Source: Thermodesulfobacteriota bacterium (GTDB taxonomy: Bacteria; Desulfobacterota; Desulfarculia; JACQYL01). From it: DNA of 64,000 nucleotides. Made by a program: the position numbers and the translations under genes. The notes below the pieces were generated by a model. It was not told where the DNA came from, did not search any database, and worked only from the letters and a program-made list of their open reading frames with translations. This document shows positions 134-50,114 of this stretch, piece by piece. The stretch lies in contig CAXXLZ010000002.1 in assembly GCA_963675595.2 (NCBI GenBank), positions 256,001 through 320,000 on the forward strand, in the 5' to 3' direction. Position 1 is the first letter of the stretch, and every line of letters begins with the position of its first letter.

Positions 134-1310
<1,177 letters not shown>

Positions 1311-20632: not shown

Positions 20633-20668
20633 TCTTACGCCGACTTCCACCCCCGGCTCCCGCCCAAG

Positions 20669-31753: not shown

Positions 31754-31943
31754 TCCTGCGGCCGGTCCCTCCCGGCGGGTCCGGGAGGGGCGCCGCCCCT
31801 ATGCCGATGGGAAGACACCGGGCCACTTTGTTCAACGTGAAGAAACCCAGCGGCCGGCGGCGAGGAGGAACGGTCCGGACCGACGAAATCACACGGCAAC
31901 CTGAATAAACTTTTTCGCCAACAGACTTTGAGGAAACGGCATC

Positions 31944-32465: not shown

Positions 32466-32466
32466 T

Positions 32467-33810: not shown

Positions 33811-33860
33811 CCTTTCGTGCGTCGGACCGGTCATTTGATTCATGAAGGAGATACGGCGAC

Positions 33861-34490: not shown

Positions 34491-36670
34491 TGCAGGAGGC
34501 ACGGAACCTCAGGGAGTACAAAGACGAGGTGCGTGAGGCCCTGGACAATGAGTTCCAGCGGGAAGCGTTGGACAAATTCGCCCTCGCCTATCCCGTCGGC
34601 AGACAAAACGCCTTCGCCGGACTGGAAATCGACACGCTGGTGGACGAGGTGGCCCGCAGGAAGGACTTCGCCGTCGCCCACATGGAGGAACTCTATCAGG
34701 AGTTCAAAAGCAAAGCCGAAGCAGCGGGCGTTCACGTCCATTTGGCGCGCACCGCCAAGGAAGCCAACGACATCATCGCGGACATCGCCCGAAGCGCGGG
34801 AGCCCGGAACATCATCAAGTCCAAATCCATGACCGCGGAGGAGATTCTCCTCAACCACCACCTCGAAGCCGAGGGGTTCCAGGTCACGGAAACCGACCTG
34901 GGAGAATGGATCATCCAATTGCGTCACGAAGGACCGTCTCACATGGTCATGCCCGCCATCCATCTCTCCAGGTACCAAGTGGCCGACTTGTTCTCGGACG
35001 TCACGGGAAAAACGCAGGATGCCGAAATCGAACGGCTGGTCAAGGTGGCTCGGCGGGAACTCAGGCAGAAGTTCGTGGAGGCGGACTTGGGCGTTTCGGG
35101 CGCCAATTTCGCCGTTGCGGAAACCGGGACCATCGGCATGACCACCAACGAGGGGAACGCCAGGCTGGTGGCCACCCTGCCCAGGACTCACGTGGTCCTG
35201 GCGGGCCTGGAAAAGCTGGTTCCCAAACTCCACGATGCTCTTTCCATCAATCGAGTGCTTCCGAAAAACGCCACGGGGCAGGCCATCACCTCTTACGTCA
35301 CCTGGATCACCGGTCCCGTGGAATGCGGTGCAACCCCGGACCGGAAAAAGGAGTTGCACGTCGTCTTTCTCGACAACGGGCGCAGTCGGCTGGCTCGTGA
35401 TCCCGTTTTTTCCCAGGTGCTTCGCTGCATTCGCTGCGGAGCCTGCGCCAACGTCTGTCCCGTTTACCGAATGGTGGGAGGACACCGGTACGGCCACATC
35501 TACATCGGGGCCATCGGGCTCATTGTGACGTATTTCTTCCACGGCCGGGAAAAGGCCCGGAACCTGGTCATGAACTGCCTCAATTGCGGGGCCTGCAAGG
35601 CCGTGTGCGCCGCCGGGATCGACCTGCCTCGCCTCATCAAGGAAGTCCACACCAGGATTCAGGACGAGGAAGGACATCCGCTGAAAGGAAGGCTCGCAGG
35701 GATCGCCATGAAAAACCGGAAGCTGTTTCATGGGTTGCTGACGTCGCTGCGTCGGGCACAACGGCCCGTGACCGGGGGAACTCAGTTCATGAGACATCTG
35801 CCCATGGTCCTGTTCGGCGCTTACGAATACATGGCGCTTCCCGCCCTGGCCGAGCGTCCCTTTAGGGAGCTCTGGCCGACGATCCACACCCGCGTGGAGC
35901 ATCCCCGTTTCCGCGTGGCTCTCTTCGCCGGATGTCTCGAAGATTTCGTCTATCCCCAACATCTGATTGCGGCGGTTCGTCTGTTTTCACGCCATGGTGT
36001 GGACGTGCACTTTCCCCTCCACCAGACCTGTTGCGGTCTGCCTTTGGACATGATGGGGGAAAAGGAGACGGCCCGAGAGTTGGCGGAGCAGAATTTGGAG
36101 GCCGCGGATCCGGCGAATTACGACTATATTGTGACCCTGTGCGCCTCTTGCGCCTCCCACCTGAAGAACGGAGTTCCTCGGTTGCTTCAAATGGCTGGAA
36201 GTCCCTCCGCCAAAGCTCGAGAGTTCTCCGAGAAGATACTCCCCTTCAGTTCATTCGCCGCCGATGTGTTGAAGCTGGGTCCGGATGACTTCTCGCCTTC
36301 GAATCGCAAGGTCACCTACCACGCCTCCTGTCACCTTTGCCGAGGGCTCGGGGTCCGTAAAGCGCCTCACGAGCTGATCCGGGCCTCGGGATCGGATTTC
36401 GGACAGGCATCGGAAGAAGAAACCTGCTGCGGGTTCGGAGGAACCTACGCGAGCAATTTCCCGCAAATCTCCGAGCGGATATTGAAACGAAAGCTCGCGG
36501 ATTTTCAGCAGACCGGAGCGGACCTGCTCGTCACGGAATGTCCGGGTTGTGTGCTCCATTTGAAAGGGGGGGTTACCCGGCAGGGAATGTCCATGGAAGT
36601 TGAACACTTGGCCGAACACCTGGCCGATCAAATGAAACCCGGCCCCACCCGGGAAAAGGAGTTGCGATGA
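34490..36670 (+). CDS. lutB: L-lactate dehydrogenase Fe-S subunit (LutB fused to LutA-like CCG domains, LldH type)
   Basis: KSKSMTAEEI, ETDLGEWI, PSHMVMPAIH and CIRCGACANVCP; two C-terminal CCG domains. Confidence 0.92.
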   Translation: MQEARNLREYKDEVREALDNEFQREALDKFALAYPVGRQNAFAGLEIDTLVDEVARRKDFAVAHMEELYQEFKSKAEAAGVHVHLARTAKEANDIIADIARSAGARNIIKSKSMTAEEILLNHHLEAEGFQVTETDLGEWIIQLRHEGPSHMVMPAIHLSRYQVADLFSDVTGKTQDAEIERLVKVARRELRQKFVEADLGVSGANFAVAETGTIGMTTNEGNARLVATLPRTHVVLAGLEKLVPKLHDALSINRVLPKNATGQAITSYVTWITGPVECGATPDRKKELHVVFLDNGRSRLARDPVFSQVLRCIRCGACANVCPVYRMVGGHRYGHIYIGAIGLIVTYFFHGREKARNLVMNCLNCGACKAVCAAGIDLPRLIKEVHTRIQDEEGHPLKGRLAGIAMKNRKLFHGLLTSLRRAQRPVTGGTQFMRHLPMVLFGAYEYMALPALAERPFRELWPTIHTRVEHPRFRVALFAGCLEDFVYPQHLIAAVRLFSRHGVDVHFPLHQTCCGLPLDMMGEKETARELAEQNLEAADPANYDYIVTLCASCASHLKNGVPRLLQMAGSPSAKAREFSEKILPFSSFAADVLKLGPDDFSPSNRKVTYHASCHLCRGLGVRKAPHELIRASGSDFGQASEEETCCGFGGTYASNFPQISERILKRKLADFQQTGADLLVTECPGCVLHLKGGVTRQGMSMEVEHLAEHLADQMKPGPTREKELR

Positions 36671-37170
36671 AGCTGCCTGTGTTTCAACGAATTCTCTTCC
36701 CCACCGACATGTCGGAAAGCGCGGGATTCGCTTTTCCCTACGCCGCGGAGCTCGCCCACCGATTGAACGGCCATATTACCATTCTCCATGTGATCGAGAA
36801 TCCGTCTCACGCCATAGAACAGCAGATTCTCTCCTATTTGGGAGAATCGGGCTGGAAAGACCTGCAGAAGCATCGGGAGGATGATTTCGTCGCGGCGGCC
36901 AAGAATCGTCTTTCCGCCTTTTGTCAAGATATGAGCGACCGCTTGGACGACTGCCCCTTTATTGTCGAGGAGATCAAAGTGCTCCACGGCCTGCCTTCCG
37001 AAATCATCCTGCACGAAGCCGAAAAGGGAGGTTTCGACCTGGTGGTCATGGGGACCCACGGCTTCGGCCTGTTGGCCAACGCGCTCATGGGAAGCGTGGC
37101 CACCAGGGTGGTGCGTCATTGCTCCAAACCGGTGCTCACCATTCGATTGCCCAAGGAGAAGCGGGAATAG
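36667..37170 (+). CDS. Universal stress protein
   Basis: ILFPTDMS, DLVVMGTHG, MGSVATRVVR and PVLTI. Confidence 0.93.
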   Translation: MKLPVFQRILFPTDMSESAGFAFPYAAELAHRLNGHITILHVIENPSHAIEQQILSYLGESGWKDLQKHREDDFVAAAKNRLSAFCQDMSDRLDDCPFIVEEIKVLHGLPSEIILHEAEKGGFDLVVMGTHGFGLLANALMGSVATRVVRHCSKPVLTIRLPKEKRE

Positions 37171-37286
37171 AGACGCGGGAACCAATCGGTTATCTTTGTC
37201 CCGGATGCCGATCTCGATCTTCACCGGCCTGAGTTGCAGTCGAGCATACGGAATGGAAACGGCTTTCGCCTTGGAAAGGATGCACA

Positions 37287-39056
37287 TTGAATTCATTGGA
37301 GTCTTCGTTGTTGAAGGAGCGCGGATTGCGATTCAATAAGCTTCACCTTCTGATGGTTTTCTTGTCGGTCGTGACTCTGATGTTTGTCGTCGATGCGGAA
37401 GCAGGCTGGCGACTCGATGGGGGGCGCTTCCAGGCGTCGGTGCACGGTGGAATGGGATGCCTGGATTGCCACGAAAATATCCCGCAACAAACTCCGCACC
37501 CGAACCCTTCCGACGTGAACAAGTCCCTATCCGATTTCTTCGAACCGGAACACTGTCTGACCTGTCACGAAGAAGTACGGGACGAGATCGAAACCGAAGC
37601 CGTTCACGGTGGAGAAGACGTCCATGACACGCAACGCTTCTTTAACTGCGTGGCGTGCCACGATCCACACTACCAGGGAACGACCGAGGATGAGGCGGGC
37701 TCCGAGGCTCCGCAATGGAGCGAAGCGGACCGGCCGTGTATGACCTGCCATGAGCGGGTGCCGAAAGACGATCCGGCTCGACTGACGAAGGACCGCGACT
37801 TCTGCTTCGTCTGTCACGCCGCGAATTCGAGCACGCCCGCTTGGTTGCCGGCCATGGACCCGGCCGAATACACCCAATCCACCCATGCCGCGCAGGATTG
37901 CCTGTCCTGCCACACACGGGCCGACGGGTATGGACATGATCGCCAACCCAAGGTAGATTGCCGCGCCTGCCACCAGCCCCACGCGGAAAAAGTGACGCAC
38001 GACGCCCACTCCCTGGTTTCCTGCGAAGCCTGCCACTTGGGAGACGTGTCGCCCCTGCGCGACCCTCAAACCCATCAAGTGCTCTGGGAACGTACTCGAG
38101 CCGCCGGCGCGCTCTCGACGGTGCACGATTTTTCCGCCTCGGATGAAAGCACATGCCTTCGCTGTCACTTCAAGGGCAACACCGTGGGCACGGTTGCCAT
38201 GGTCCTGCCTCCCAAGAGTGTTTTGTGCATGCCCTGCCACGCGGCCACCCTCAGCATCGGAGATACCGTAACTTGGATCTCGCTGCTCGTGGCTTTTATC
38301 GGTTTCCTGGGGGTCGCGACCCTATGGTTTTCGGGACGGTCGGGCGAAACATCCGACAGAAGCCCCTCCGGCAATCCGACAAGCCACGCTCACAGCGCCG
38401 GTTTCTCTCATAGGCTGCCGGCCGTATTGGAGGCGATATTCTGGGATGTGCTCCTGCAACGACGGCTCTTTCGCAGGTCTCCGAGGCGCTGGGCCGTCCA
38501 TGCCCTGATTTTCTGGCCTTTCGTCATTCGCTTCGTCTGGGGCGTCTTGGCGCTGTTTTCAACGAACTATCTAAAATCATGGCCCTTTTCCTGGATCCTC
38601 GTGAACAAGAATTATCCGCTCACCGCCTTATTGTTCGATCTCACGGGAATCTGCCTGGCAATCGGAATCGTCCTGGCTTTTGTCCGGGGGGCCGCGGCGG
38701 ACCGAACCCGCACGCCCGGCTTGCCGTCCCAGGATCGTTTGGCCCTCGGCCTTCTGGGCGGCATCGTTTTGGTGGGGTTCGTCTTGGAAGGCATGCGTAT
38801 CGCGCTCACGGGCGCGCAGGGCCCCGCGGCCTTTGCGTTTTTAGGATACGGCATCAGCCGTCTGTTCACCGGGATGAACCAACTCAGCGTCGTTTACGGC
38901 TACGTCTGGTACCTGCACGCCGTCCTGACCGGGGCCTTTGTCGCCTACTTGCCCTTCAGCAGGATGATGCACATCATCATGGGACCGGTAATTTTGGCCA
39001 TGAACGCGGGAGCCGATCCACACCACGCCGGGCGACCGACGAAATCGAATCATTAG
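37287..39056 (+). CDS. Decaheme cytochrome c fused to a NarI/HdrE-like membrane cytochrome b
   Basis: Signal peptide and 10 CxxCH motifs, then TM helices with WAVH, GFVLEGMRI, YLH and PFSRMMH. Confidence 0.85.
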   Translation: MNSLESSLLKERGLRFNKLHLLMVFLSVVTLMFVVDAEAGWRLDGGRFQASVHGGMGCLDCHENIPQQTPHPNPSDVNKSLSDFFEPEHCLTCHEEVRDEIETEAVHGGEDVHDTQRFFNCVACHDPHYQGTTEDEAGSEAPQWSEADRPCMTCHERVPKDDPARLTKDRDFCFVCHAANSSTPAWLPAMDPAEYTQSTHAAQDCLSCHTRADGYGHDRQPKVDCRACHQPHAEKVTHDAHSLVSCEACHLGDVSPLRDPQTHQVLWERTRAAGALSTVHDFSASDESTCLRCHFKGNTVGTVAMVLPPKSVLCMPCHAATLSIGDTVTWISLLVAFIGFLGVATLWFSGRSGETSDRSPSGNPTSHAHSAGFSHRLPAVLEAIFWDVLLQRRLFRRSPRRWAVHALIFWPFVIRFVWGVLALFSTNYLKSWPFSWILVNKNYPLTALLFDLTGICLAIGIVLAFVRGAAADRTRTPGLPSQDRLALGLLGGIVLVGFVLEGMRIALTGAQGPAAFAFLGYGISRLFTGMNQLSVVYGYVWYLHAVLTGAFVAYLPFSRMMHIIMGPVILAMNAGADPHHAGRPTKSNH

Positions 39057-39091
39057 AAGGAAACGGCAACGATGGTTATGGAGGAAAGGTG

Positions 39092-40474
39092 ATGAACGAC
39101 GACATCAAGAAAGCCCTGAAAGAGATCGTCGGAGAAGACAATTTCACCGATCGGCTGATCGACATGGTCTCGTATTCCTACGATGCGTCCGAGCACAGCA
39201 GCCGTCCGGATTGCGCCGTGTGGGCGGAAAACGTAGAGCAGGTGTCCGAGATATTGAAAACGGCCGACAAACATCGCATCCCCGTAATTCCCAGGGGCGC
39301 GGGAACCGGCTTGTCCGGAATGGTCGTACCGGTAAAGGGCGGCATCGTTTTGGACTTGAATCGGATGAATCGGATTCTGAAGATCAGCATCGAGGACCGC
39401 CTGGCCGTTGTGCAGCCGGGCGTGGTGTATGCCGACCTGGATCGCGCATTGGCCCCTTACGGCTTCTTCTTCCCCCCGGACCCGGGCAGCGGCAGCGTCT
39501 GTACGTTGGGCGGCAACGTGGCCACCAACGCCGGTGGGGTCAAAGGCGCCAAGTACGGCACCACCCGAGATTATGTCCTGGGCTTGCAGGTGGTTCGCGC
39601 CGACGGCCGCATTATGCGGACGGGCGCGTCGACCATCAAGTGCGTCTCCGGATACGACCTGACCCGCCTGATCGTAGGCTCGGAAGGTACTCTGGGCGTG
39701 GTGACCGAAATCACCTTGAAGATCAATCCCAAGCCGACGGCGGCGAGTACCGCGGTGGCCACTTTCGGGAACCTGGAGGATGCCGGACGGGCGGTCACCC
39801 GAATCATGTCTTCGGGCATCATCCCGGCGGTCATGGAGATCATGGACCTGCCCACCATACAGGCCATCAATCAGAATACCGACCTCGGTCTTCCGGAAGT
39901 GGAAGCCATGTTGTTGGTGGAAACCGACGGGTATACTCAGGTCGAAACCGACTATCAGCTGTCCAAAGTGGTCGAGGTATTCAAAGAAAACCATTCCCTG
40001 GATATCAAACAGGCGGCTTCGAGAGACGAGGCCGCGGTGTTGTGGAAAGCCCGAAAATCAGCCTACGCGGTCCTGGCACGCATTCAGACCCACTTCGTGC
40101 TGGAGGACGTCACCGTGCCCATGGGAAGAATCACCGATCTGCTCCGGGGCATCGGCGATATCTCCAAAAAGTACGACCTCCGCATCGCCACTTTCGGCCA
40201 CGCCGGGGACGGCAACCTGCATCCACAGATTCTTTATGACGGCTACAACCCGGACGAGACGGCCCGGATGAAACAGGCGGTGGCCGATCTCTTTAAACTC
40301 TCGGTGGAACTGAACGGCACCCTCACGGGCGAACACGGTATCGGCATCGCCAAGGCTTCGTTTATGAGCTTGGAGCACGATGACGTGGAGATGGAAACCA
40401 TGCGCGCGGTCAAGCGCGCCTTCGATCCCAATAATATCCTGAACCCCGGAAAAATGGCGTTGGAGGCGAATTGA
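39092..40474 (+). CDS. glcD: FAD-linked 2-hydroxyacid dehydrogenase (GlcD/D-lactate dehydrogenase family)
   Basis: PRGAGTGLSG, PPDPGS, GSEGTLG, GHAGDGNLH, GEHGIG and NPGK. Confidence 0.93.
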   Translation: MNDDIKKALKEIVGEDNFTDRLIDMVSYSYDASEHSSRPDCAVWAENVEQVSEILKTADKHRIPVIPRGAGTGLSGMVVPVKGGIVLDLNRMNRILKISIEDRLAVVQPGVVYADLDRALAPYGFFFPPDPGSGSVCTLGGNVATNAGGVKGAKYGTTRDYVLGLQVVRADGRIMRTGASTIKCVSGYDLTRLIVGSEGTLGVVTEITLKINPKPTAASTAVATFGNLEDAGRAVTRIMSSGIIPAVMEIMDLPTIQAINQNTDLGLPEVEAMLLVETDGYTQVETDYQLSKVVEVFKENHSLDIKQAASRDEAAVLWKARKSAYAVLARIQTHFVLEDVTVPMGRITDLLRGIGDISKKYDLRIATFGHAGDGNLHPQILYDGYNPDETARMKQAVADLFKLSVELNGTLTGEHGIGIAKASFMSLEHDDVEMETMRAVKRAFDPNNILNPGKMALEAN

Positions 40475-41577
40475 TGGAGGCGAAATACGACTTTGAAAGA
40501 AAATACCGCAAGCAGATATTGCAGTGTTCGCGGTGCGGCTACTGCCAGGCGGTCTGTCCGATATTCGGGATTACTCATCGTCCCTCTTTCAATGCCCGGG
40601 GCAAGATGCTGCTCCTTAAGGAGGTCATGGATGGTAAGATCGACCTCAACGAAGAACTGATCGACACCCTCTTTCAGTGCACAACCTGCGCGGCCTGCAA
40701 GGAGAACTGCCCGTCGGGAGTGAATGTCCCCGAGATCATCAAGCAGGCCCGCAAGGACATGGTCAACATCGGGTCCTGCCATCCGGCCTTCACCGGAATG
40801 AACGAAGTCCTGCAGAAGAACACCAATATCTACGCCGAGGACGAACCGGAAGATTTCGGCCGCGAGCGCAACAAAAAGGCCGATTACGTCTATTTCGTCG
40901 GCTGCGTGGGCCTTTACCGTGAAGACGAAGCCACCGAGGCCACCCTGGACCTTCTGGACAGGCTCGACGTCGATTACACGTTGGTTGACGAAGCGTGCTG
41001 CAGCGGCGTGCTGGAAGACGTCGGACATTCCATCAACACCGACCTGGCCGACAAGAACATCGAAACCATTTTGGCCACCGGCGCCCATACGGTAATCACG
41101 GGCTGCCCCTACTGCTACCGGACCTTTAAGAACAAGGACGCCTACGCGCCCCTGAGGGAAAAGGGAATCCAACTGGTGCACATGGCGCAATTCCTGAAAG
41201 ACCTGGACATTTCCGTGACCACGGACTTGAAGGTAACGTACCACGATCCCTGCGACTTGGGCCGGCACTGCGGCATCTATGAGGAGCCCCGCCAAACCAT
41301 CCGGAAGATCGCTCCCAATTTCGTCGAGATGGCCCATCACCACGCCGACTCTCTGTGCTGCGGGTCCGGAGGCGGTGTTCGTGGGGCTTTCCCGAAGAAC
41401 TCGCTGAAAATGGCCAGACACCGGCTGGACGAGGCGTTGGATGTTCAGGCCGACGTGCTGCTCACCGAATGCAACTCCTGCGTCCACAATTTGGCCAACG
41501 CCAAACTGCGCAAGGACAAAATTCGTATCATGAACACCACCCAGTTTATCAACGAACTGATGGAAGAGGCTGAATAA
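40474..41577 (+). CDS. HdrD/GlcF-like Fe-S CCG protein
   Basis: CSRCGYCQAVCP, CTTCAACKENCP, YFVGC/CCS/CPYC and YHDPC/CCG/CNSC. Confidence 0.9.
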   Translation: MEAKYDFERKYRKQILQCSRCGYCQAVCPIFGITHRPSFNARGKMLLLKEVMDGKIDLNEELIDTLFQCTTCAACKENCPSGVNVPEIIKQARKDMVNIGSCHPAFTGMNEVLQKNTNIYAEDEPEDFGRERNKKADYVYFVGCVGLYREDEATEATLDLLDRLDVDYTLVDEACCSGVLEDVGHSINTDLADKNIETILATGAHTVITGCPYCYRTFKNKDAYAPLREKGIQLVHMAQFLKDLDISVTTDLKVTYHDPCDLGRHCGIYEEPRQTIRKIAPNFVEMAHHHADSLCCGSGGGVRGAFPKNSLKMARHRLDEALDVQADVLLTECNSCVHNLANAKLRKDKIRIMNTTQFINELMEEAE

Positions 41578-41609
41578 CGAATCCCTGAAATTCCGAAAGG
41601 AGGCGTCCC

Positions 41610-42035
41610 ATGGATATCGGCGGCTACAACATGCCCGAGGACCTTTATTACGAGCCCAATCATTGGTGGGTCAAACAAGACGGAGACTTGTTGGTCATGG
41701 GAATGGACGACTTCGCTCAGAAACTGGCCGGAGAGATCGTCTATGTGCAATTGCCCGATGACGGAAAGAAGATCACGGCGGGGAAAAAGCTCGCCAAGGT
41801 CGAGTCCGGCAAATGGCTGGGCAAGGTCATCGCTCCGGTCAACGGCGTGATCGACTCGGTCAACGAGGAGCTGGAGGAAAACCCCGGTTTGATCAATGAA
41901 GACTGCTACGGCAAGGGCTGGATGTACAAAATCAAACCCGACGACGCCGGGGACCTGTCCAAACTGATTACCGGCGCGGAAGCCCTAACCAAATGGATCA
42001 ACGAAGAGATCGAAAAGTATGCCGACACGGAGTGA
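41610..42035 (+). CDS. GcvH-like lipoate-binding protein (LbpA-type)
   Basis: VESGKW lipoylation motif (Lys68), APVNG, VNEEL and INEDCYGKGW. Confidence 0.92.
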   Translation: MDIGGYNMPEDLYYEPNHWWVKQDGDLLVMGMDDFAQKLAGEIVYVQLPDDGKKITAGKKLAKVESGKWLGKVIAPVNGVIDSVNEELEENPGLINEDCYGKGWMYKIKPDDAGDLSKLITGAEALTKWINEEIEKYADTE

Positions 42036-43239
42036 AGCCAAACCTTCCCGATTCAGCGTGCGGCAACGTATGGAGCTCACCGCGTGTACCAACTGCCGTT
42101 TGTGCGCGGATGTCTGCCCGGCCGTCAAAGCCTCGGACAAAGGTGAGCTCTCCGCGCTGAACCGCATGAAGGGTTTGCGGAAATTACTGAAGAGCCGGGG
42201 ACCCGGCTTCCTCGCCCGACTATTCGGTTCCAAGACCATGTCCGACGAGGAGCGGCGAGACTTTTCCAACAACGCTTTTAGCTGCACTCTGTGCGGCAAC
42301 TGCCGGGAAGTCTGTCCCGTGGGCATTCACCTCAAAGACCTCTGGCTTTCCCTGAGGGAGGACTTGGTTGATACGGACAATTTCCCCAAGAAAATCAACC
42401 TGATCAAGAAGAATCTCCTGGAAAGCCGCAATGTGTTCGGGGAAGACAACGAAGAACGGGCCGAATGGGTGGAAGACCTGGACGACGCACCGGACGACCT
42501 GTTGGTGCGGGATGAGGCGCAGGTGGTCTATTTCACCGGATGCACGGCGGCCTATTTCCCGGTGGCCCAGAAGATTCCTCTGGCATTTGCGGAAGTCCTT
42601 ACCAAAGCTGACGTGGATTTCTCCCTTATGGGAGAAGACGAATGGTGCTGCGGGTTTCCATTGCTGGGTGCCGGTCTGAGGGACCTTTTCCCCGAATTCG
42701 CCGAACACAACATGGAGGCGGTGCTGGAAAAGGGGGCCCGGGAAGTGGTGTTCGCGTGCCCTTCCTGTTACGAGATGTGGAAAGAGCACTACGACTATGA
42801 ATCACGGGGTATCGTCATTTATCACAGCACCCAATTCCTGTTGCGACTGATCCAATCGGGCGCTTTGAAACTCAAGGAATTGGATATGACCGTGACTTAT
42901 CACGACCCCTGCGACCTGGGCCGAGGGGCCAGGGAGTTCGAGGCACCCCGAGAGGTGATCCGTTCCATACCGGGAATTCGATTCGTGGAATTGCCGGACA
43001 ACCGTGAAAACTGCAATTGTTGCGGCGGCGGAGGCAATCTGGAGATGATCGATGCCGGGCTTTCCGCGGACATCGCCAAGGCCAAGATCGAGGAAGTCCT
43101 GTCCACGGGAGCCGACGCGGTGGTGACATCCTGCCAGCAGTGTGTGCGAACCATGCTGACCTACGCCAAGCGCAACAAGGTTCCCATCGAAGTGCTGGAT
43201 ATTACGCAACTCGTTCAACGGGCCCTGGCCGACTCCTGA
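42019..43239 (+). CDS. HdrD-like Fe-S CCG protein
   Basis: CTNCRLCADVCP, CTLCGNCREVCP, YFTGC/CCG/CPSC and YHDPC/CCG/CQQC. Confidence 0.9.
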   Translation: MPTRSEAKPSRFSVRQRMELTACTNCRLCADVCPAVKASDKGELSALNRMKGLRKLLKSRGPGFLARLFGSKTMSDEERRDFSNNAFSCTLCGNCREVCPVGIHLKDLWLSLREDLVDTDNFPKKINLIKKNLLESRNVFGEDNEERAEWVEDLDDAPDDLLVRDEAQVVYFTGCTAAYFPVAQKIPLAFAEVLTKADVDFSLMGEDEWCCGFPLLGAGLRDLFPEFAEHNMEAVLEKGAREVVFACPSCYEMWKEHYDYESRGIVIYHSTQFLLRLIQSGALKLKELDMTVTYHDPCDLGRGAREFEAPREVIRSIPGIRFVELPDNRENCNCCGGGGNLEMIDAGLSADIAKAKIEEVLSTGADAVVTSCQQCVRTMLTYAKRNKVPIEVLDITQLVQRALADS

Positions 43240-43266
43240 CCGACCCGCCTCGCTGGAACTCGAATC

Positions 43267-44859
43267 ATGACCACATGGCGTTTATTGGATACGCCGCCCA
43301 TGACGGCGGCCGAAAACATGGCCCTGGACGAGACGCTGGTGGAGCTCAAGGGCCGCGGCCGCACGCCCGATACCATCCGGTTTCTGCGTTTCAAGCCCCG
43401 GTGCGTCCTGGTGGGATACCACCAGGCCGTGCGGGAAGAGATTCGCCTCGAGTACTGCCGCGAACAAGGCATCGACGTGAACCGACGCATCACGGGCGGA
43501 GGCGCCATCTTTTTCGACGAGAACCAACTGGGTTGGGAGGTCTATGCAGACAAATCCTTCTTCAACATCGCCATTCCCAACAACCGCCTTTTCAAGGCCC
43601 TTTGTCGGCCGGTGGTCACCGCCCTGAAACGCCTGGGGCTGCGAGCCGATTTCCGCCCGCGCAACGATATCGAGATTCGAGGACGAAAGATTTCAGGCAC
43701 CGGCGGGACCGAGTCCGAAGAGGCTTTCATGTTCCAGGGAACCATGCTGGTGGATTTCGACGTGGACACCATGCTGCGGGCCCTGCGTATTCCGGTGGAG
43801 AAACTCAAGGCCAAGGAGATCGATTCGGTCAAGGATCGAGTGACCTGCCTCCAATGGGAGTTGGGTTACACGCCTCCTTTGGAGGAGATCAAAGCGGCCA
43901 TCCGATACGGCTTCGAAAGCGGGCTGGGAATCCGGCTGGAACCTGGGGGCCTTACCGATGAGGAAGAAGCGCTGTTCCGACGAAAGCTTCCGGGCTTTCA
44001 GTCTCCTGCGTGGATCGATTCCGTGAAGCCCGAGTTCGGGAGGCGCGAGGCGGTGCAGTCCTCCTACAAAGCCGATGCCGGGATGGTGCGGTACACCCTG
44101 GTCGTCAACCCGAGCCGGCGACGTTTGAAGGACATCTATATCACGGGTGATTTCCTCTGCTTCCCCGGCCGGGCGCTTTACGACCTGGAAGCGGCTCTGC
44201 GAGGCATGCCCCTGGACCGTCGAACGCTTCTCGAAACCATTCGGAGCTTCTTCGACGACGGACGCATCACCATACCCGGCATGCCCTTGGAAGCCTTTGT
44301 CCAGCCTCTGGAGCAGGCACTGGAGAAAATCAAGATCACGCGGTTCGGAATCCCCCTGGAGCACTGCAACCTGATTTCGGTAACCAACGGCTCCTTTGAG
44401 GAAATTCTGCGCATGGAGCCTTCGGTCCTGCTTCTGCCTTACTGCGCCAAGCTTACCGACTGCGACCTGCGGTACGCCAAGGGATGCAGGACCTGCGGGA
44501 GAGAGACCTGCACCATCGGTCCCGCCTGGACCCTGGCAAAAGAGCGCAAGATGAAGGTGATCAGCATCGTCAGCTTCGAGGACCTTTGGGCCGAACTCAC
44601 GCGCATGCGCGAGAAGGGAACCCGTGCCTACATCGGCTGCTGCTGTCAACCCTTCTACGCCAAACACGTGGATGATTTTCAGCGCAGCGGCGTACCGGGC
44701 ATCCTGCTGGATATCGACAACACCACCTGTTACGACCTGGACCAGGCCAAAGAGGCCTACGCCGGCCGATTCGAAAGCCAGACCGTGCTGAACCTGGAAT
44801 TGCTCGAAACCGTGCTGCGCGCCGGTGAGTCTCACTCGGCATGCCTGGAGACACGCTGA
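43267..44859 (+). CDS. Lipoate:protein ligase (Lpl(AB)) with Cys-rich DUF116-like C-terminus
   Basis: NMALDE, RRITGGGAIF, NDI, RKISGTG and ITGDF; C-terminal LPYC..C..C..C..C and GCCC. Confidence 0.9.
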   Translation: MTTWRLLDTPPMTAAENMALDETLVELKGRGRTPDTIRFLRFKPRCVLVGYHQAVREEIRLEYCREQGIDVNRRITGGGAIFFDENQLGWEVYADKSFFNIAIPNNRLFKALCRPVVTALKRLGLRADFRPRNDIEIRGRKISGTGGTESEEAFMFQGTMLVDFDVDTMLRALRIPVEKLKAKEIDSVKDRVTCLQWELGYTPPLEEIKAAIRYGFESGLGIRLEPGGLTDEEEALFRRKLPGFQSPAWIDSVKPEFGRREAVQSSYKADAGMVRYTLVVNPSRRRLKDIYITGDFLCFPGRALYDLEAALRGMPLDRRTLLETIRSFFDDGRITIPGMPLEAFVQPLEQALEKIKITRFGIPLEHCNLISVTNGSFEEILRMEPSVLLLPYCAKLTDCDLRYAKGCRTCGRETCTIGPAWTLAKERKMKVISIVSFEDLWAELTRMREKGTRAYIGCCCQPFYAKHVDDFQRSGVPGILLDIDNTTCYDLDQAKEAYAGRFESQTVLNLELLETVLRAGESHSACLETR

Positions 44860-45926
44860 TGAGCGAATCGCGGTTCGATGTTCTGGTAGTGGGCGCGGGG
44901 CCGGCCGGGTCTTCGGCGGCCGCGGCCGCGGCTCGAAAAGGCGCTCGCGTGCTCATGGTGGAGCGCCGGGAAACCATCGGCGTGCCCGTACGATGCGCGG
45001 AATTCATCCCCGCCATGCTGCTGGGCGAATTGGAAATCGACAAAGGTTTTATTGTTCAACCGGTGAAAGGCATGAAGACTCATATCGGAGACCACGCCGA
45101 AAAGACGACCCGCGCGCCCGGGTATATCATTCGAAGGGACCGATTCGATCAGACGCTGGCCGAAAAGGCGCGCACGGACGGCGTCCAAGTGATGACCGGG
45201 ACCCGAGTTTCACACATGGATGCGGACGGCCGAGTTTATCTCACGGCGCGATGCGGGCCCGGTCATGTGGTGGAGCCGCGAATCGTCATCGGAGCCGACG
45301 GTCCGCATTCCACCGTGGGACGCTGGGCGGGCTTGGTGAACCGCGGTCTTCTGCCGGCCGTTCAGGTGACCCTGCCCCTCACCCGACCTCTGGATCATAA
45401 CGAAGTGTATTTCCATCCGACCATCACCGCTGGATACGGCTGGCTTTTTCCCAAGGGTGATTCCGCCAACGTGGGACTGGGCATGCGCACCAACGAACGG
45501 GACGGGGAAAGCATCGGAAAGACCCTGGATCGCTTCGTGACCAAGCTGCGGCGCATGGACAAAGTGTCCGGCGACCCCACTTCCCGGACTGCGGGTTGGA
45601 TACCGGTTGAACCGTTGAGCCGCACCGTTCACGGTCCCATCGCTCTGGTGGGCGACGCCGCCGGACATACCCATGCCGTTACCGGGGCCGGCGTGTTCGC
45701 AGCAGTGGTCTGCGGCCGCATGGCCGGAAAGTGGGCCGGAGAAGCGGCACGAAACAATGACATCGGCCTTCTCGAAAAATACGAGCAGGGATGGCGGGAT
45801 TTTTTAGGCCGGACCCTGTGGCTGGCGAGGGAGCGTCGTCGAAAAATGGAAGCGGAATGGGACCGCTTCGCCGATGTGATACCCAAATGCTGGCCGGTTT
45901 ATCGTGAATACTATGCAAAACATTGA
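44859..45926 (+). CDS. lipT: Geranylgeranyl reductase-family flavoprotein (LipT-like)
   Basis: GAGPAG, CAE, GADG, GYGWLFPKG and GDAAG motifs; located between the ligase and the radical SAM genes. Confidence 0.75.
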   Translation: MSESRFDVLVVGAGPAGSSAAAAAARKGARVLMVERRETIGVPVRCAEFIPAMLLGELEIDKGFIVQPVKGMKTHIGDHAEKTTRAPGYIIRRDRFDQTLAEKARTDGVQVMTGTRVSHMDADGRVYLTARCGPGHVVEPRIVIGADGPHSTVGRWAGLVNRGLLPAVQVTLPLTRPLDHNEVYFHPTITAGYGWLFPKGDSANVGLGMRTNERDGESIGKTLDRFVTKLRRMDKVSGDPTSRTAGWIPVEPLSRTVHGPIALVGDAAGHTHAVTGAGVFAAVVCGRMAGKWAGEAARNNDIGLLEKYEQGWRDFLGRTLWLARERRRKMEAEWDRFADVIPKCWPVYREYYAKH

Positions 45927-46860
45927 ATATAAAAGGAAGCCGGACGAAAATTCGGCATGGGAGCGGCCAGGGCAGCACATCACCTTTTTTCTGCCGGGTA
46001 TGTTTCGACTCAACGGGCACACCGGGCGGTATCCGGCCGTTTCCATCACCGGCGGCGACTGCGCTCTGGGATGCGACCACTGCCGGGGAACGATTCTGTC
46101 CAATATGCTGAAGGCCGACGACCCGGATCGACTGCCGGCCGTGTGTAGACGTCTGGCGAATCAGGGGCATGTGGGAGTGCTCATCAGCGGGGGCTGCGGA
46201 CCGGACGGCACCATTCCCTGGTCGGGCTTCTTCGAGGCCATCCGCAAGATCAAATCCTCCACCGGGCTGTTTGTTTCCATCCACAGCGGATTGGTGGACC
46301 TCAAGACCGCCCGAAGCCTCAAGAACGCCGGCGTGGACCAGGCCCTCATCGACGTCATCGGAGATGATGCGACCTTCAGGTCCGTGTACCGGCTGCCTTT
46401 CGGCGTGGACGAGATCGCACGCTCCATGGAAGCTCTGCAAGCGGTCGGCATTCCCATTGTTCCTCACATCGTCTGCGGCATCGACCACGGCCGGATTCAC
46501 GGCGAGTATCAGGCCGTTGAAACGGCGGCCCGATTCAACATCGCCCAATTGGTCGTCGTATCCCTGATGCCCATTCCCGGCACCCCCATGGCCCGTGTAA
46601 AGCCTCCGAGCGCCGAACAAACGGCCGACATCATATCCGAAGCGAGGTCGAGAATGCCGGACATTCCCATCAGCTTGGGATGCGCCAGAAAACGAGGCGA
46701 CCATCGTCTGGAAGAACTGGCCCTGGACGCCGGCGTCACCCGCATGGCCCTTCCTTCGGAAGAGGCCGTACAGCACGCGCGAGACCGCGGGCTTCAGGTG
46801 CGTTTTCAGCCCACCTGCTGCTCCGTGCCTCCAATGCTGTATACCGATGGTTGGCTCTAG
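45913..46860 (+). CDS. lipS1: Radical SAM lipoyl synthase subunit (GCAR + CC motif type)
   Basis: CALGCDHC, LISGG, LGCARK and PTCCS; the motif set described for Thermococcus LipS1. Confidence 0.8.
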   Translation: MQNIEYKRKPDENSAWERPGQHITFFLPGMFRLNGHTGRYPAVSITGGDCALGCDHCRGTILSNMLKADDPDRLPAVCRRLANQGHVGVLISGGCGPDGTIPWSGFFEAIRKIKSSTGLFVSIHSGLVDLKTARSLKNAGVDQALIDVIGDDATFRSVYRLPFGVDEIARSMEALQAVGIPIVPHIVCGIDHGRIHGEYQAVETAARFNIAQLVVVSLMPIPGTPMARVKPPSAEQTADIISEARSRMPDIPISLGCARKRGDHRLEELALDAGVTRMALPSEEAVQHARDRGLQVRFQPTCCSVPPMLYTDGWL

Positions 46861-46985
46861 CAGGGCGGTGAAAAACGCGATCTGCTGCGTTGCACTTCAT
46901 CCCTCGTCATTGCGGCGTACTCTATGTACGCCTTCATTCCTCGGGATTTGCGCGCCTTGCATATCATCGTTTTTCACCGCCCTGC
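46860..46985. repeat. 126-bp MITE-like element
   Basis: Perfect 18-bp TIR GCAGGGCGGTGAAAAACG with internal dyad symmetry. Confidence 0.8.
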
Positions 46986-47225
46986 GGCAACCGGACTTTT
47001 GAAACGGGCTGTTAGCGATTCTTTGTGTGAGCCGGGGGACGCTTGTGCGGGGTCGCACCGCCTCCAGCGGAGCGACGTGAGGAAGATCAAGGGCGTTGAG
47101 CCGGCTCTTTAGTCTTTTTCCGTCACTTTGAAACGACGGAAAATGCCGCTTTGGAGAGGCGGCTCGTCTCTCGGTGAGCGCCTACGGGCAAACACATGCC
47201 GACACCCACTTAGAAAGTTTGGAAA

Positions 47226-47272
47226 AGGGGGGTACGGGGGGGAGAACTTTTTTAAAAGTTCTCCCCCCCCGT
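47226..47272 (+). repeat. REP-like hairpin repeat
   Basis: GGGGGGTACGGGGGGGAGAACTTTT-T-TAAAAGTTCTCCCCCCCCGT. Confidence 0.75.
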
Positions 47273-47332
47273 GAATGCTTTCAACCTTTTTGGCTTTTCC
47301 CGAGTGAACAACTGAGAAAGGAGCATCGAAGG

Positions 47333-48379
47333 ATGCCGTCCGATATGGAAACCAAAGAAAGCCCCGAATATTTGCGCACGAGTCTGGCAGCCGCCATGAC
47401 GTTGGGATTCAAACCGGGCATTTTCTACCGCGGGGCCAAGCTGTACTGCATCAACCTGCTGCTGACCTACCGCAGCGGATGCGCGGCGCGGTGCGCTTAC
47501 TGCGGGTTGTCTCGCGCCAGGTCCGGAGAATACGGCGACAAGAGTTTCATCCGGGTGAGCTGGCCCGCCTACGCTCTGGAAGAGATCATCGAAAGCATCG
47601 GTCGGCGCATGCAGCGGGTCAAGCGCATCTGCATTTCCATGATCACCAACCGGCGCGCCGTGGCAGACACCCGCGACATTTGCGCCAGACTCCGCTCCGC
47701 TTTCGACATTCCGGTATCGTTGCTCATTTCCCCCACCCTGGTGACGCGCGACGCCCTGATCGACTTCCGGGAGGCCGGAGCGGACAAGATCGGGGTGGCC
47801 TTGGACCTGGCCACCCCTGAACTGTTCTCCAGGTATCGAGGCAAAGGCGTGGGCGGCCCCCACTCCTGGGATCGGTATATGGAATGTCTCGGGGACGCTG
47901 TTGAGCTTTTCGGCCGCCGCAATGCCGGGTCCCACTTCGTGGTGGGCATGGGCGAAACCGAACGGGAAATGGTGGAGAGCATCCAGCGAGTTCAGGACAT
48001 GGGAGGCTGGACGCACCTGTTTTCCTTTTTTCCCGAAGCGGATTCCCCCATGAAGGACCACCCCATGCCGGACATGGATCATTACCGGCGCATCCAATTG
48101 GCCCGTTACCTGCTCGACGAAGGCATCTCCCGCGCCGAGCGTTTCAGGTACGACGAAGACGAACGAATTGAACACTTCGGCGTGCCCTCCCATCGCCTGG
48201 ACGAAGTGATCGACGGCGGTGAACCTTTCCGCACCAGCGGGTGCGAAGGCTATGACGGGCAGGTGGCCTGCAACCGACCTTACGCCAATTCACGCCCGGG
48301 TCCGGATATCCGAAATTTTCCCTTCCCACCCGAGGCTGAAGACATCGCACGCATTCGTGGGCAGATGGGTCTTGGGTAG
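47333..48379 (+). CDS. lipS2: Radical SAM lipoyl synthase subunit (TxGC..CNRP type)
   Basis: CAARCAYC and C-terminal RTSGCEG..VACNRPY; the motif described for Thermococcus LipS2. Confidence 0.8.
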   Translation: MPSDMETKESPEYLRTSLAAAMTLGFKPGIFYRGAKLYCINLLLTYRSGCAARCAYCGLSRARSGEYGDKSFIRVSWPAYALEEIIESIGRRMQRVKRICISMITNRRAVADTRDICARLRSAFDIPVSLLISPTLVTRDALIDFREAGADKIGVALDLATPELFSRYRGKGVGGPHSWDRYMECLGDAVELFGRRNAGSHFVVGMGETEREMVESIQRVQDMGGWTHLFSFFPEADSPMKDHPMPDMDHYRRIQLARYLLDEGISRAERFRYDEDERIEHFGVPSHRLDEVIDGGEPFRTSGCEGYDGQVACNRPYANSRPGPDIRNFPFPPEAEDIARIRGQMGLG

Positions 48380-48389
48380 GTATTTATTT

Positions 48390-48647
48390 GCCGGGGAAAA
48401 CTTTCGAGAGAGTTTTCCCCTGACCCCTTTCAAAGCCTTGAAAGCGGGCCTCACCGCCTTCGCGGAGAGGCTTTCGGCGAAAAAAATTCGGGAACGGGAG
48501 AGTAAGGCGGGCAGGTACTGTGGCCCTCCCTTCCGTCTTTTACGTAATCTCTACTCTGCCGCTCCGCCGCAGACGGCGCTGCCATGGTCCAAAGTCTTGC
48601 AGGGGTCAGGGGGGTCCGGGGGGCGCTTTTTCAAAAGCGCCCCCCGG
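48390..48647. repeat. Two REP-like repeat copies in opposite orientation
   Basis: GGGGAAAACT..AGTTTTCCCC plus GGGCCTCACCGCCTTCGCGGAG; and GGGGGGTCCGGGGGGCGCTTTT-TC-AAAAGCGCCCCCCGG. Confidence 0.75.
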
Positions 48648-48683
48648 CATCGTTAAACATCCAAACGAAGAAGGAACCGTTCT

Positions 48684-49850
48684 TTGCAGGGAATACTCAT
48701 CCTGGTCGCCTCCGTGGTCATGCAGATGTGCTTGGGGGCCACCTACTCCTGGTCCGTCTATGTTGGTCCGCTCAGGGAGCTGACCGGCATGCTGCAGGGA
48801 CCGACGCAGTTGCCGTTCACGTTCTTCTATTTCGTCTTTCCCGCCGTGATGATCATATCCGGAACGCTCCTTCCTCGGCTGGGCCCCCGATTCTGCTCCG
48901 TACTGGGCGGGCTTCTGTTCGGTTCCGGCTGGATACTGGCGAGTTGGGGTGACGTTCATTTCGCATTCACCGTGCTGGGCATCGGCATTCTGGCCGGAGT
49001 GGGCGTGGGATTCGCCTACATCGTTCCCATCGCCACGTGCATCCGGTGGTTTCCCGAACACAAGGGATTGGTGACCGGCGTGGCCGTGGCCGGCTTCGGA
49101 GGCGGTGCGGCTCTGGTAAGCCAGATCGGCGGCCGGCTCATGCACCTGCACGGAGCCACGCCTTTTGAAACCTTTCGCATTTTCGGCATCGCCTTCGCCC
49201 TGCTGGTCCCTTTGGCGGGCCTGGTCATGAAGAATCCGCAAGTCCAGGCCGGCGGCAAATCTTCAACTTCAAAGGCCCGAGGCATTGTGAATACAGGGCC
49301 CTTCCGTCTGCTGTACTTCGCCATGTTCAGCGGCTTGGCGGCGGGTTTTGCCGTGAATGCCAACCTCAAGGAACTCTTCATGGAAGGAAGCGCGGCCACC
49401 GGCATCCTGGCCGTGTCTCTGTTCGCCGCGGCCAATGCCCTGGGCCGGCTGACCTGGGGTTTCGTGTTCGACCGCCTGCCCTCTGCGACGGCGATTCAGG
49501 CCAACCTTTTCGCCCAGGCGGCCGTTCTCGTCGGCGGGCCGTGGGTGCTCAGATCCGAGACCGGTCTGCTGGTCTTTTCTCTGCTCACGGGATTCAACTA
49601 CGGAGGCGTTTTGGTGGTGTACGCGTCGTCCGCGGCACGCATTTGGGGCAATGAACGGGTGGGGAGCGTTTACGGGCGTCTGTTCTCGTCCAACATTCCC
49701 GCCGCCCTGGCGCCCATCGCAGCCGGGGTTCTGTTCGATTGGACGGGAAGTTTCACCCTGCCTTTGTGGTTCATCGGCGGGATGCTGACCGTCGCGGCGC
49801 TCATGGTGAAGAGGAATTCGGGGCGGTTGACGGAGGAATCGGACGTGTGA
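48684..49850 (+). CDS. MFS transporter, oxalate/formate antiporter (OFA)-like
   Basis: GATYSWSVY, WFPEHKGLVTG, GFGGG and NALGR motifs; about 12 TMs. Confidence 0.88.
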   Translation: MQGILILVASVVMQMCLGATYSWSVYVGPLRELTGMLQGPTQLPFTFFYFVFPAVMIISGTLLPRLGPRFCSVLGGLLFGSGWILASWGDVHFAFTVLGIGILAGVGVGFAYIVPIATCIRWFPEHKGLVTGVAVAGFGGGAALVSQIGGRLMHLHGATPFETFRIFGIAFALLVPLAGLVMKNPQVQAGGKSSTSKARGIVNTGPFRLLYFAMFSGLAAGFAVNANLKELFMEGSAATGILAVSLFAAANALGRLTWGFVFDRLPSATAIQANLFAQAAVLVGGPWVLRSETGLLVFSLLTGFNYGGVLVVYASSAARIWGNERVGSVYGRLFSSNIPAALAPIAAGVLFDWTGSFTLPLWFIGGMLTVAALMVKRNSGRLTEESDV

Positions 49851-49904
49851 AGGGATCGGAAACCCGCACCGGCTCAATGGGTTCGGATCTCCTATGGCAG
49901 CCGT

Positions 49905-49990
49905 TTACGGGGGGGAACTTTTGAAAAAGTTCCCCCCCGCGGCCCCCCTCAAACATCTCAAACGGGCCTCACCGCCTCCTGCGGAGCGCC
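49905..49990 (-). repeat. REP/MITE-like repeat copy
   Basis: GGGGGGGAACTTTT-GA-AAAAGTTCCCCCCC plus GGGCCTCACCGCCTCCTGCGGAG. Confidence 0.75.
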
Positions 49991-50114
49991 TGAAGAAAAT
50001 AGGGTTGCTCACTAATTTCCGGCTTTACTTACATCTCCTAAGCTGACCCAAAAGCTCCCTAGTTCGGCTTCGTCGCACGTCGTCGGGATAAAGCCCGCAT
50101 AAGGCGTGCAGACG

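Follow-up and report, generated by a model that had tools for sequence, protein, structure and literature searches.

HdrDE of Methanosarcina is built from a NarI-like b cytochrome and a soluble subunit with two cubane clusters and two CCG motifs, and a low-molecular disulfide is the substrate at its CCG site. In TmcABCD, HmcABCDEF and DsrMKJOP, a periplasmic multihaem cytochrome c is joined to a NarI-like b cytochrome and a cytoplasmic CCG protein; the partner on which DsrMK acts is DsrC, a small thiol/disulfide protein. Mycobacterial EtfD (PDB 9ojn) and the Syntrophus EMO are electron transfer flavoprotein (ETF):menaquinone oxidoreductases, for which electron transfer from a cytoplasmic donor to menaquinone by way of non-cubane clusters, cubane clusters and haem b has been described (PMC13083937; EMO structure study). 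In the sHdr-LbpA system, a dedicated GcvH-like lipoate-binding protein is encoded beside Hdr-like CCG proteins, together with its own ligase, LipT and LipS1/S2, and the Dld-II/GlcDEF D-lactate/glycolate dehydrogenases (DVU3027-28) combine a GlcD-like flavoprotein with an Fe-S/CCG subunit (Vita 2015). We report here a gene cluster at positions 37287–48379 of a 64,000-nucleotide stretch of DNA (the window; contig CAXXLZ010000002.1) from a Thermodesulfobacteriota bacterium, which encodes a GcvH-like lipoyl carrier between two HdrD-like proteins, a membrane cytochrome and a set of lipoylation enzymes. Our comparison shows EtfD to be its closest counterpart by sequence and by fold; the cluster would operate in the manner of HdrDE, DsrMK or Tmc, and its lipoylation genes resemble the set found with sHdr. 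It may represent an undescribed route by which electrons from lactate and oxo acids reach the membrane in sulfate-reducing bacteria.

Genes were called from a listing of open reading frames (ORFs) of at least 110 amino acids together with Pfam and NCBIfam profile scans. The cluster comprises the following genes:

37287–39056, plus strand: decahaem cytochrome c/NarI-like membrane fusion (ten CXXCH motifs; membrane C-terminus)
ORF frame from 38579, probable ATG 39092, end 40474, plus strand: GlcD-like flavin adenine dinucleotide (FAD)-linked 2-hydroxy-acid dehydrogenase subunit (Pfam FAD_binding_4 and FAD-oxidase_C)
40471–41577, plus strand: first HdrD-like protein, HdrD1 (Pfam; two cubane-cluster motifs and two complete CCG motifs)
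41610–42035, plus strand: GcvH-like (LbpA-like) lipoyl carrier with the motif VESGKW (Pfam GCV_H, 131.9 bits)
42019–43239, plus strand: second HdrD-like protein, HdrD2 (Pfam Fer4 and two CCG domains)
43267–44859, plus strand: lipoate:protein ligase with an LplA/B catalytic part, an LplB-like part and a C-terminal DUF116 (PF01976) (Pfam)
44841–45926, plus strand: LipT-like flavoprotein of the geranylgeranyl-reductase family (TIGR02032, 209.9 bits; cut-off 158.8)
45904–46860, plus strand: LipS1-like radical S-adenosylmethionine (SAM) protein (NF053742, 218.6 bits; cut-off 230)
47174–48379, plus strand: LipS2-like radical SAM protein, probable start near 47333 (NF053743, 222.3 bits; cut-off 270; match from residue 68)

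All of these genes lie 3′ of genes for a tripartite ATP-independent periplasmic (TRAP) transporter and an LdhH-type L-lactate dehydrogenase. Their spacing is tight, with overlaps between lbpA and hdrD2 (17 nt), lpl and lipT, and lipT and lipS1; the exception is the stretch of about 470 bp between the LipS1-like gene and the probable start of the LipS2-like gene (46861–47332), which holds no convincing ORF and no Rfam match. An earlier note on this DNA had described the genes as co-oriented, mostly tightly spaced and downstream of TRAP and LutCB genes, and the ORF, Pfam and NCBIfam results confirm this. Its statement that GcvP/GcvT, 2-oxoacid E1/E2, dihydrolipoamide dehydrogenase (Lpd) and HdrA are missing from the window is correct for ORFs of at least 110 amino acids, among which profile scans and tblastn found none of them. 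A promoter and terminator scan over 30000–49999 gave sites no more numerous than in shuffles.

The arrangement is conserved. HdrD2 orthologues with 55–69% identity occur in 19 of 40 related genomes searched, and the module is present in 26 of 301 evenly sampled genomes of the phylum (this one included), spread over 16 of 199 genera (HdrD2, E up to 1e-130). Loci were mapped by tblastn with the window proteins, 15 of them from relatives and the others being the best 80 of 588 relatives in species-representative genomes, mostly Desulfobacterota metagenome-assembled genomes plus Desulfovibrio desulfuricans strain SFAD67. These are the 95 loci left after one candidate (L040, in genome G014) was dropped as a 32%-identical paralogue lacking a carrier gene; the 85 with HdrD2 at least 52% identical are the basis of the counts, and two comparison loci from the host's own genome (L011 and L013) stand outside them. 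The loci were selected by HdrD2 similarity and are mutually related, and so are not independent samples. The carrier gene is located directly 5′ of HdrD2 in 72 of 77 testable loci and a cytochrome/NarI-like gene 5′ of HdrD2 in 47 of 51, in agreement with the synteny predicted by the earlier note, namely a GcvH-like gene with genes for CCG proteins and a NarI-like cytochrome at its sides. On the other side of HdrD2, the ligase gene follows in 48 of 65 testable loci, and LipT, LipS1 and LipS2 together in 12 of 50. Its recurrence in different families of the phylum puts the arrangement well beyond chance. The invariant core consists of the NarI-like membrane protein, the lipoyl carrier, HdrD2 and the lipoate ligase; the neighboring dehydrogenase and the c-haem domain vary.

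HdrD2 carries 18 cysteines that are invariant in 77 sequences (23/26/29/33, 89/92/95/99, 175/210/211/247/250 and 298/334/335/372/375), including all ten CCG cysteines, and displays the HdrD-type signature of two 4Fe-4S motifs and two complete CCG motifs. Its NCBIfam scores are far below the cut-offs for TmcB (78.3 bits; cut-off 735), HmcF (66.3; 750) and DsrK (86.6; 400) and place it outside these families. Against the PDB, the HdrD2 profile matches residues 408–744 of chain 9ojn_A at E 1.4e-54, followed by HdrB at 8.6e-10. In the residue alignment with EtfD, C210-C211 and C247-P-S-C250 of HdrD2 occupy the positions of C-T539 and H583, so that a CC pair and a serine replace the EtfD residues; both CC pairs are kept and the EtfD-type first CCG motif (Cys-Thr539, His583) is absent. 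In EtfD, owing to Thr539 and His583, the CCG motifs are described as holding a linear 3Fe-4S cluster and a non-cubane cluster that is fully coordinated and shielded, both non-catalytic (PMC13083937). HdrD1 likewise keeps both CCG motifs, with invariant cysteines in 38 sequences at 19/22/25/29, 70/73/76/80, 145/176/177/212/215 and 261/296/297/334. To judge from their motifs, the CCG sites of HdrD2 and HdrD1 fit an Hdr-type site open to a disulfide.

The membrane half of the proposed complex is encoded by the cytochrome gene. All ten CXXCH motifs are kept in 41 aligned sequences, taken from 44 with near-full coverage after three with a stop codon (L059, L067 and L084) were left out; this alignment (A2), like A3–A5, was built from tblastn match ranges rather than curated gene starts. 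By sequence, the NarI likeness of the C-terminus is weak: Pfam at its default threshold gave the membrane domain no name, and a relaxed scan gave Nitrate_red_gam at E 1.7e-4 (21.7 bits; cut-off 22.9). The AlphaFold model of the fusion (mean predicted local distance difference test (pLDDT) 84.7; predicted TM-score 0.79) contains a helical membrane domain, for which the top Foldseek match is M. smegmatis EtfD 9ojn (E 6.3e-4), followed by E. coli NarI chains (probability 0.98–1.0; target TM-score about 0.5). This predicted fold supports assignment of the C-terminal membrane domain (residues ~327–576) as NarI/HdrE/EtfD-like with five helices. H405, H544 and H562 are invariant in the 41 sequences, lie within transmembrane helices and are putative haem ligands.

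Because HdrD2 and the membrane domain both match EtfD 9ojn best, they resemble the two halves of a split EtfD or HdrDE; EtfD itself is reported to overlay on an AlphaFold model of HdrDE (PMC13083937). The complex is distinct from EtfD and EMO in being divided between two genes, in having the carrier and ligase as constant companions, in its added c-haem domain and in the lack of ETF genes among the window ORFs, to which the search for ETF domains was confined. It is distinct from HdrDE in that the proposed substrate is a protein-bound lipoamide rather than the coenzyme M–coenzyme B heterodisulfide (CoM-S-S-CoB), the membrane subunit bears ten c haems and the likely direction is opposite; moreover, the host is a DsrA-bearing sulfate reducer, in which methanogenic cofactors would not be expected. 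Compared with Tmc, Hmc and DsrMKJOP, the small protein is a lipoylated-type GcvH instead of DsrC, and the c and b cytochromes are fused.

We infer that this HdrDE/Tmc-like complex takes electrons from protein-bound dihydrolipoamide and delivers them to menaquinone or periplasmic haems, a reading to which, in both direction and chemistry, we give an even chance. Cytoplasmic dehydrogenases would load the carrier with two electrons. In the window, the loader would be GlcD–HdrD1, whose substrate would probably be D-lactate or a related 2-hydroxy acid taken up by the TRAP transporter; in other genomes it would be a 2-oxoacid/acetoin E1-E2-E3 set, presumably through Lpd, or a GlcDEF-like enzyme. HdrD2 would then reoxidize the dihydrolipoyl carrier at its non-cubane clusters. 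From there, two cubane clusters and haem b would lead the electrons to menaquinone, and the c haems would offer a branch, additional or alternative to the menaquinone route, to the periplasmic cytochrome pool serving sulfate reduction. What the sequences show is the gene content and its conservation, the resemblance to a split EtfD or HdrDE, the cysteine motifs and a carrier independent of glycine cleavage; what we infer is that the carrier is lipoylated, that CCG sites act on it, which way the electrons run and where they end.

The genes beside the core bear on the loading step. Of the close loci, 46 offer 8 kb or more of upstream sequence. Among these, 21 have the order seen in the window, cytochrome–GlcD–HdrD1–carrier–HdrD2 (form A), with GlcD orthologues 57–82% identical and, in some, a shorter haem domain. 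Another 12 (form B) lack GlcD and HdrD1; directly 5′ and co-oriented, they carry two or more of the genes for E1beta, E2, Lpd and a LipB-LipA fusion; Pfam and NCBIfam identify this set, in L109, L029 and L027, as a 2-oxoacid/acetoin-type E1-E2-E3. The remaining 13 have neither main feeder set. One of these, L100, carries GlcD-GlcE-GlcF-like genes and then a lactate racemase gene (LarA) before the cytochrome gene (Pfam), and a LarA gene is likewise found before the cytochrome gene in L106, whose upstream sequence is too short for inclusion in the 46 (Pfam); in two more of the 13, L090 and L097, the corresponding GlcD/GlcD/HdrD-like pattern upstream was seen by tblastn only. The core thus recurs beside three electron-producing dehydrogenase sets, GlcD–HdrD1, E1beta/E2/E3 and GlcD-GlcE-GlcF-like with LarA. 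In the window, the flavoprotein pair scores below the equivalog cut-offs of the known enzymes (TIGR00387 glcD, 506.5 bits against 567.9; GlcF, 77.8 against 333), and it is set apart from Dld-II/GlcDEF by its position between the membrane cytochrome and lipoyl-carrier genes.

These loci modify the picture drawn in the earlier note. GlcD and HdrD1, which it had counted as part of the core, are an optional feeder (21 of 46 loci), and its description of the shuttle as independent of nicotinamide adenine dinucleotide (NAD) and specific for 2-hydroxy acids fails for the family, in which 12 of 46 loci bring an E1beta/E2/E3 set with Lpd. A 2-hydroxy-acid specificity of the module was accordingly rejected, form B loci adjoining E1-E2-E3 sets. 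Its view that the carrier does not serve glycine cleavage was upheld, the host genome having no GcvP or GcvT match and 9 of 20 module-bearing genomes having a separate gcvH by gcvP. As to novelty, the arrangement is indeed undescribed in the literature found, but Hdr-like reduction of LbpA-bound lipoamide had already been published as a hypothesis for sHdr (Cao 2018).

Electron flow toward the membrane is favored because the conserved neighbors are all catabolic and because forms without c haems can reach only quinone. Distant relatives (46–48% identical, labelled Syntrophaceae and similar) have a stand-alone 282-aa NarI-like protein without any CXXCH, encoded after GlcD–HdrD1–carrier–HdrD2. 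By sequence comparison, then, the c-haem domain is dispensable in the family, and these relatives indicate quinone as the common membrane partner. The same complex could also run in reverse, as Tmc, DsrMK and HdrDE do, with electrons from periplasmic cytochromes (H2 or formate oxidation) or quinol passing through the c and b haems to HdrD2, the carrier lipoamide and a cytoplasmic reductant; possible uses would be NADH formation via Lpd, 2-oxo-acid reduction via HdrD1–GlcD, and peroxide or disulfide detoxification. HdrDE and DsrMK, which pair a NarI-type with a CCG subunit, run from quinol to a cytoplasmic disulfide, and the fused decahaem domain recalls TmcA and HmcA, the takers of periplasmic electrons. 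In addition, Lpd genes adjoin the module in the 12 form B loci, the step from lipoamide to pyruvate is downhill on standard potentials, and GcvH-like proteins have been proposed in the literature as donors to OsmC-type peroxidases. We nevertheless consider the reversed direction unlikely: the conserved neighbors are without exception catabolic electron producers or uptake systems (TRAP, LdhH, LarA, E1-E2-E3), reduction of lipoamide by menaquinol is strongly uphill, quinol would be the sole donor in relatives that lack c haems, and no peroxidase gene was seen among the window ORFs.

Several observations weigh against oxidation of a dihydrolipoyl carrier by HdrD2. The potential of the lactate/pyruvate couple is about −190 mV, and complete CCG motifs are present, too, in GlcF, LutA and GlpC, which are not known to act on disulfides. 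Lipoamide is given a potential of −0.29 V (Cao 2018); lactate/pyruvate lies above it, so that loading of the carrier from lactate would be uphill under standard conditions. Prediction of the HdrD2–carrier complex, with our own alignments, gave a score of 0.34 (runs 0.34, 0.34 and 0.36) against 0.00 for the best control; the runs had at least 78% of contacts in common, and pLDDT was 88 for the partner. In a calibration that applies only roughly here, our own alignments having been used, 58 of 80 solved complexes attained the mark, as did 2 of 110 mismatched pairs; at scores of 0.60 or lower, 7 of the 80 solved complexes passed, and both passing mismatches fall in that range. The prediction lends the pairing weak support as a weak pass, and such passes are more often wrong than right unless the pair was likely beforehand. 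In three loci (L089, L091 and L103) HdrD2 follows the cytochrome gene with no room for a carrier gene between them, 13 of 46 loci have neither main feeder set, and the kinship of the loci and their HdrD2-based choice make the counts overstate independence.

A purely Fe-S wire is also possible, because in the Syntrophus EMO the ETF flavin is described as donating electrons directly to CCG-type non-cubane clusters (EMO structure study); by the same token HdrD1 need not act on a disulfide. Electrons would then run, as in EtfD, EMO and GlcDEF, from the GlcD flavin through the HdrD clusters and haem b to menaquinone with no CCG site acting on the carrier, which would have another role in the same pathway, e.g. 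as a partner of Lpd/E2 or as a regulator. The closest solved relatives, EtfD and EMO, both accept electrons from a flavoprotein, the GlcD-like plus Fe-S/CCG architecture has been assigned to DVU3027-28 (Vita 2015), and the three loci without an intervening carrier gene would be readily accommodated. Such a wire leaves unexplained why the carrier (72 of 77) and ligase (48 of 65) accompany HdrD2 even in loci without GlcD, and why there are two HdrD proteins; HdrD2 moreover lacks the EtfD-specific Thr/His substitutions, and no ETF genes were seen among the window ORFs. On this evidence we judge it quite unlikely.

The carrier has a GcvH fold (NF002270, 134.5 bits, cut-off 117; TIGR00527, 114 bits, cut-off 115.85; PDB H proteins, E 1.6e-36), and its residues E65-S66-G67-K68-W69 are invariant in 75 sequences. 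Lys68 is the predicted lipoylation site. In public annotation its relatives are called only ‘glycine cleavage system H protein’. The host genome (6.79 Mb, 98% complete), which holds the window, has no match to GcvP (PF02347) or GcvT (PF01571), so that the carrier cannot be a glycine cleavage H protein in this organism. Among 20 module-bearing genomes, 11 have no GcvP match, and in each of the other 9 a gcvH distinct from the carrier gene stands next to gcvP; the gcvP-linked gcvH in L032 is only 40% identical to the window carrier.

The lipoylation genes of the cluster could be thought to serve an oxo-acid complex. Ligase-, LipT-, LipS1- and LipS2-type genes are all present and adjoining, and of these only the geranylgeranyl-reductase family match exceeds its cut-off; the ligase scores 159 bits against NCBIfam lipoyltrans, 42.5 against LplB (cut-off 65) and 136.9 against LplAB (cut-off 550), all below the cut-offs. 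Its C-terminal DUF116 (PF01976) is also found in the carrier-linked ligase of Desulfovibrio desulfuricans (L109 11400–12980). GcvH acts as a relay in the Bacillus LipM/LipL route, and the carrier could similarly be a lipoyl relay or biogenesis intermediate serving E2 in a 2-oxoacid complex; that it is encoded among redox genes would then be incidental. That lipoylation genes make up a large share of the cluster, and that E2, Lpd and a LipB-LipA fusion adjoin the module in 12 of 46 loci, would suit such a role. The host, however, encodes its one E2, with an adjoining Lpd, on another contig, and has a canonical LipA (377.6 bits) and three LplA/B-family genes, so that E2 has lipoylation genes of its own in the separate LipA and third ligase/transferase. 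In form B loci, too, LipB-LipA for E2 is present besides the ligase of the carrier: the fusion lies between Lpd and the cytochrome gene in L109 (5938–7527) and L029 (5325–6875), and that of L109, the only one scored, exceeds the cut-offs for both lipB (137 bits) and lipA (344.5 bits). L109 thus has two lipoylation systems, LipB-LipA and a ligase with LipT/LipS1/LipS2, and L029 has LipB-LipA and one ligase only. As a relay would also leave both HdrD2 and the membrane cytochrome unexplained, we regard it as very unlikely.

The name LipT comes from Tanabe 2023 (section 8), and LbpA with sLpl(AB)-LipT-LipS1/S2 is the signature of sHdr sulfur oxidizers (Tanabe 2023; Cao 2018). The carrier might accordingly handle sulfur as in sHdr-LbpA, presenting sulfane sulfur to CCG proteins for oxidation or reduction, and dsrA is present in the host genome (DsrA, 585.6 bits). 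Here, however, the complex is membrane-bound with cytochromes, the neighbors are dehydrogenases of carbon substrates, and an HdrA-like flavoprotein, separate HdrB/HdrC pairs and sulfur transferases are all missing from the window ORFs; in the bacteria with LipS1/S2 surveyed by Tanabe 2023, sHdr occurs in only 42%. We leave sulfur handling the faintest of chances. In the published sHdr model, which we count in favor of our main reading, the Hdr-like complex forms dihydrolipoyl-LbpA and E3 reoxidizes it (Cao 2018).

Other loci point to the pairing of a lipoyl carrier with a CCG protein as a recurring one. In two further loci, L125 (G033:C1:472000–486000) and L126 (G009:C9:518000–531000), a GcvH-like gene (52–54% identical) lies between an HdrB-like gene (431–451 aa) and a GlcD::HdrD fusion (886–909 aa), a pairing that is suggested in 14 of 41 related genomes (coordinates by eye; Pfam and NCBIfam checks for L125 and L126). 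The host genome itself has three GcvH-family genes. The second (L011, C2:2780001–2800000; gene at 9605–10069, minus strand) encodes a protein 43% identical to the window carrier with an SRKW motif, in the order HdrB-like (294 aa), double HdrA-like (949 aa), GcvH-like, LplA (367 aa), LipS2-like radical SAM, ParA/NUBPL and TauE, and looks like another, soluble Hdr-plus-carrier system. It is because of this locus and the L125/L126 trio that, as far as sequence comparison goes, we call the pairing recurrent.

The third GcvH-family gene of the host (L012, C2:2100001–2120000; 10442–11038, minus strand) encodes a weak match (198 aa, 36.6 bits), which may belong to the ‘GcvH-related protein’ family NF045810; it lies directly 3′ of a DsbD–thioredoxin fusion and adjoins a DDE transposase gene. 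A GlcD::HdrD fusion of 865 aa is also encoded in the host genome (L127, C1:74000–86000), with no carrier gene beside it; it adjoins a 2-hydroxyglutaryl-CoA-dehydratase-like gene and the gene for its activator ATPase.

More broadly, lipoylated GcvH-like proteins may form a general two-electron carrier pool in Desulfobacterota, loaded by several CCG dehydrogenases (GlcD–HdrD pairs or fusions and GlcDEF-like enzymes) and by the Lpd of oxo-acid complexes, and unloaded by a dedicated HdrDE-like membrane complex into the quinone/cytochrome pool. We advance this tentatively, as a proposal rather more apt to prove wrong than right. If true, the pool would be a protein-bound counterpart of DsrC or CoM-S-S-CoB, would supply the missing electron acceptor of HdrD-type lactate dehydrogenases in sulfate reducers, and would add a sixth, purely redox, role for lipoate.

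How sulfate reducers convey the electrons of lactate and other organic acids to the membrane and to the enzymes of sulfate reduction is unsettled, and the membrane-bound lactate dehydrogenase of Desulfovibrio has been called ‘not well characterized’ (Vita 2015). Were a lipoyl protein to shuttle between CCG enzymes and a membrane complex of the HdrDE kind, it would be a specific carrier open to testing; lipoate would gain a role other than the transfer of acyl and aminomethyl groups, and the idea behind sHdr-LbpA would be connected with anaerobic respiration. None of the literature found describes, for sulfate reducers, a GcvH-like protein that accompanies HdrD-like proteins and a membrane cytochrome; the supplementary tables (Tanabe 2023 S2–S5, with LipS1/S2 genomes and contexts) fall outside that coverage and could mention such loci. 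With 26 of 301 genomes and more than 100 carrier clusters at 71% identity or higher in metagenome protein collections, the module is common enough to matter ecologically, and its presence in a cultured Desulfovibrio desulfuricans strain (L109) makes genetics possible.

The cluster is preceded in the window by uptake, lactate-oxidation and regulatory genes:

28023–28859, minus strand: GntR/FCD-type regulator (Pfam GntR and FCD), divergent from dctP
28730–30169, minus strand: third HdrD-like Fe-S/CCG protein, 479 aa (Pfam 4Fe-4S dicluster and two CCG domains), divergent from dctP
30599–31753, plus strand: DctP (Pfam)
31944–32465, plus strand: DctQ (Pfam)
32467–33810, plus strand: DctM (Pfam)
33861–34490, plus strand: LutC-like protein (Pfam LUD)
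34490–36670, plus strand: LutB/LutA fusion, the large subunit of an LdhH-type quinone L-lactate dehydrogenase (Pfam LUD, Fer4 and CCG; NF045670, 1038 bits; cut-off 800)
36667–37170, plus strand: universal stress protein (Pfam Usp)

TRAP genes also adjoin the module in eight other loci (L031, L035, L037, L041, L053, L055, L060 and L098), and Usp-like genes are found near it in L035, L046, L049 and L066. By its position, the GntR/FCD regulator may be a candidate controller of the hydroxy-acid genes. The top NCBIfam match of the third HdrD-like protein is the C-terminal part of LdhH, at 299 bits and below the cut-off.

Across the whole window, the one Rfam match is a fluoride riboswitch, distant from the cluster, at 20663–20730 on the minus strand (45.5 bits; gathering score 34), 5′ of a gene of the Na+/H+ exchanger family (19021–20601, minus strand). 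Three transposase genes, one of the IS110 family and two of DDE types, are located at 134–4227.

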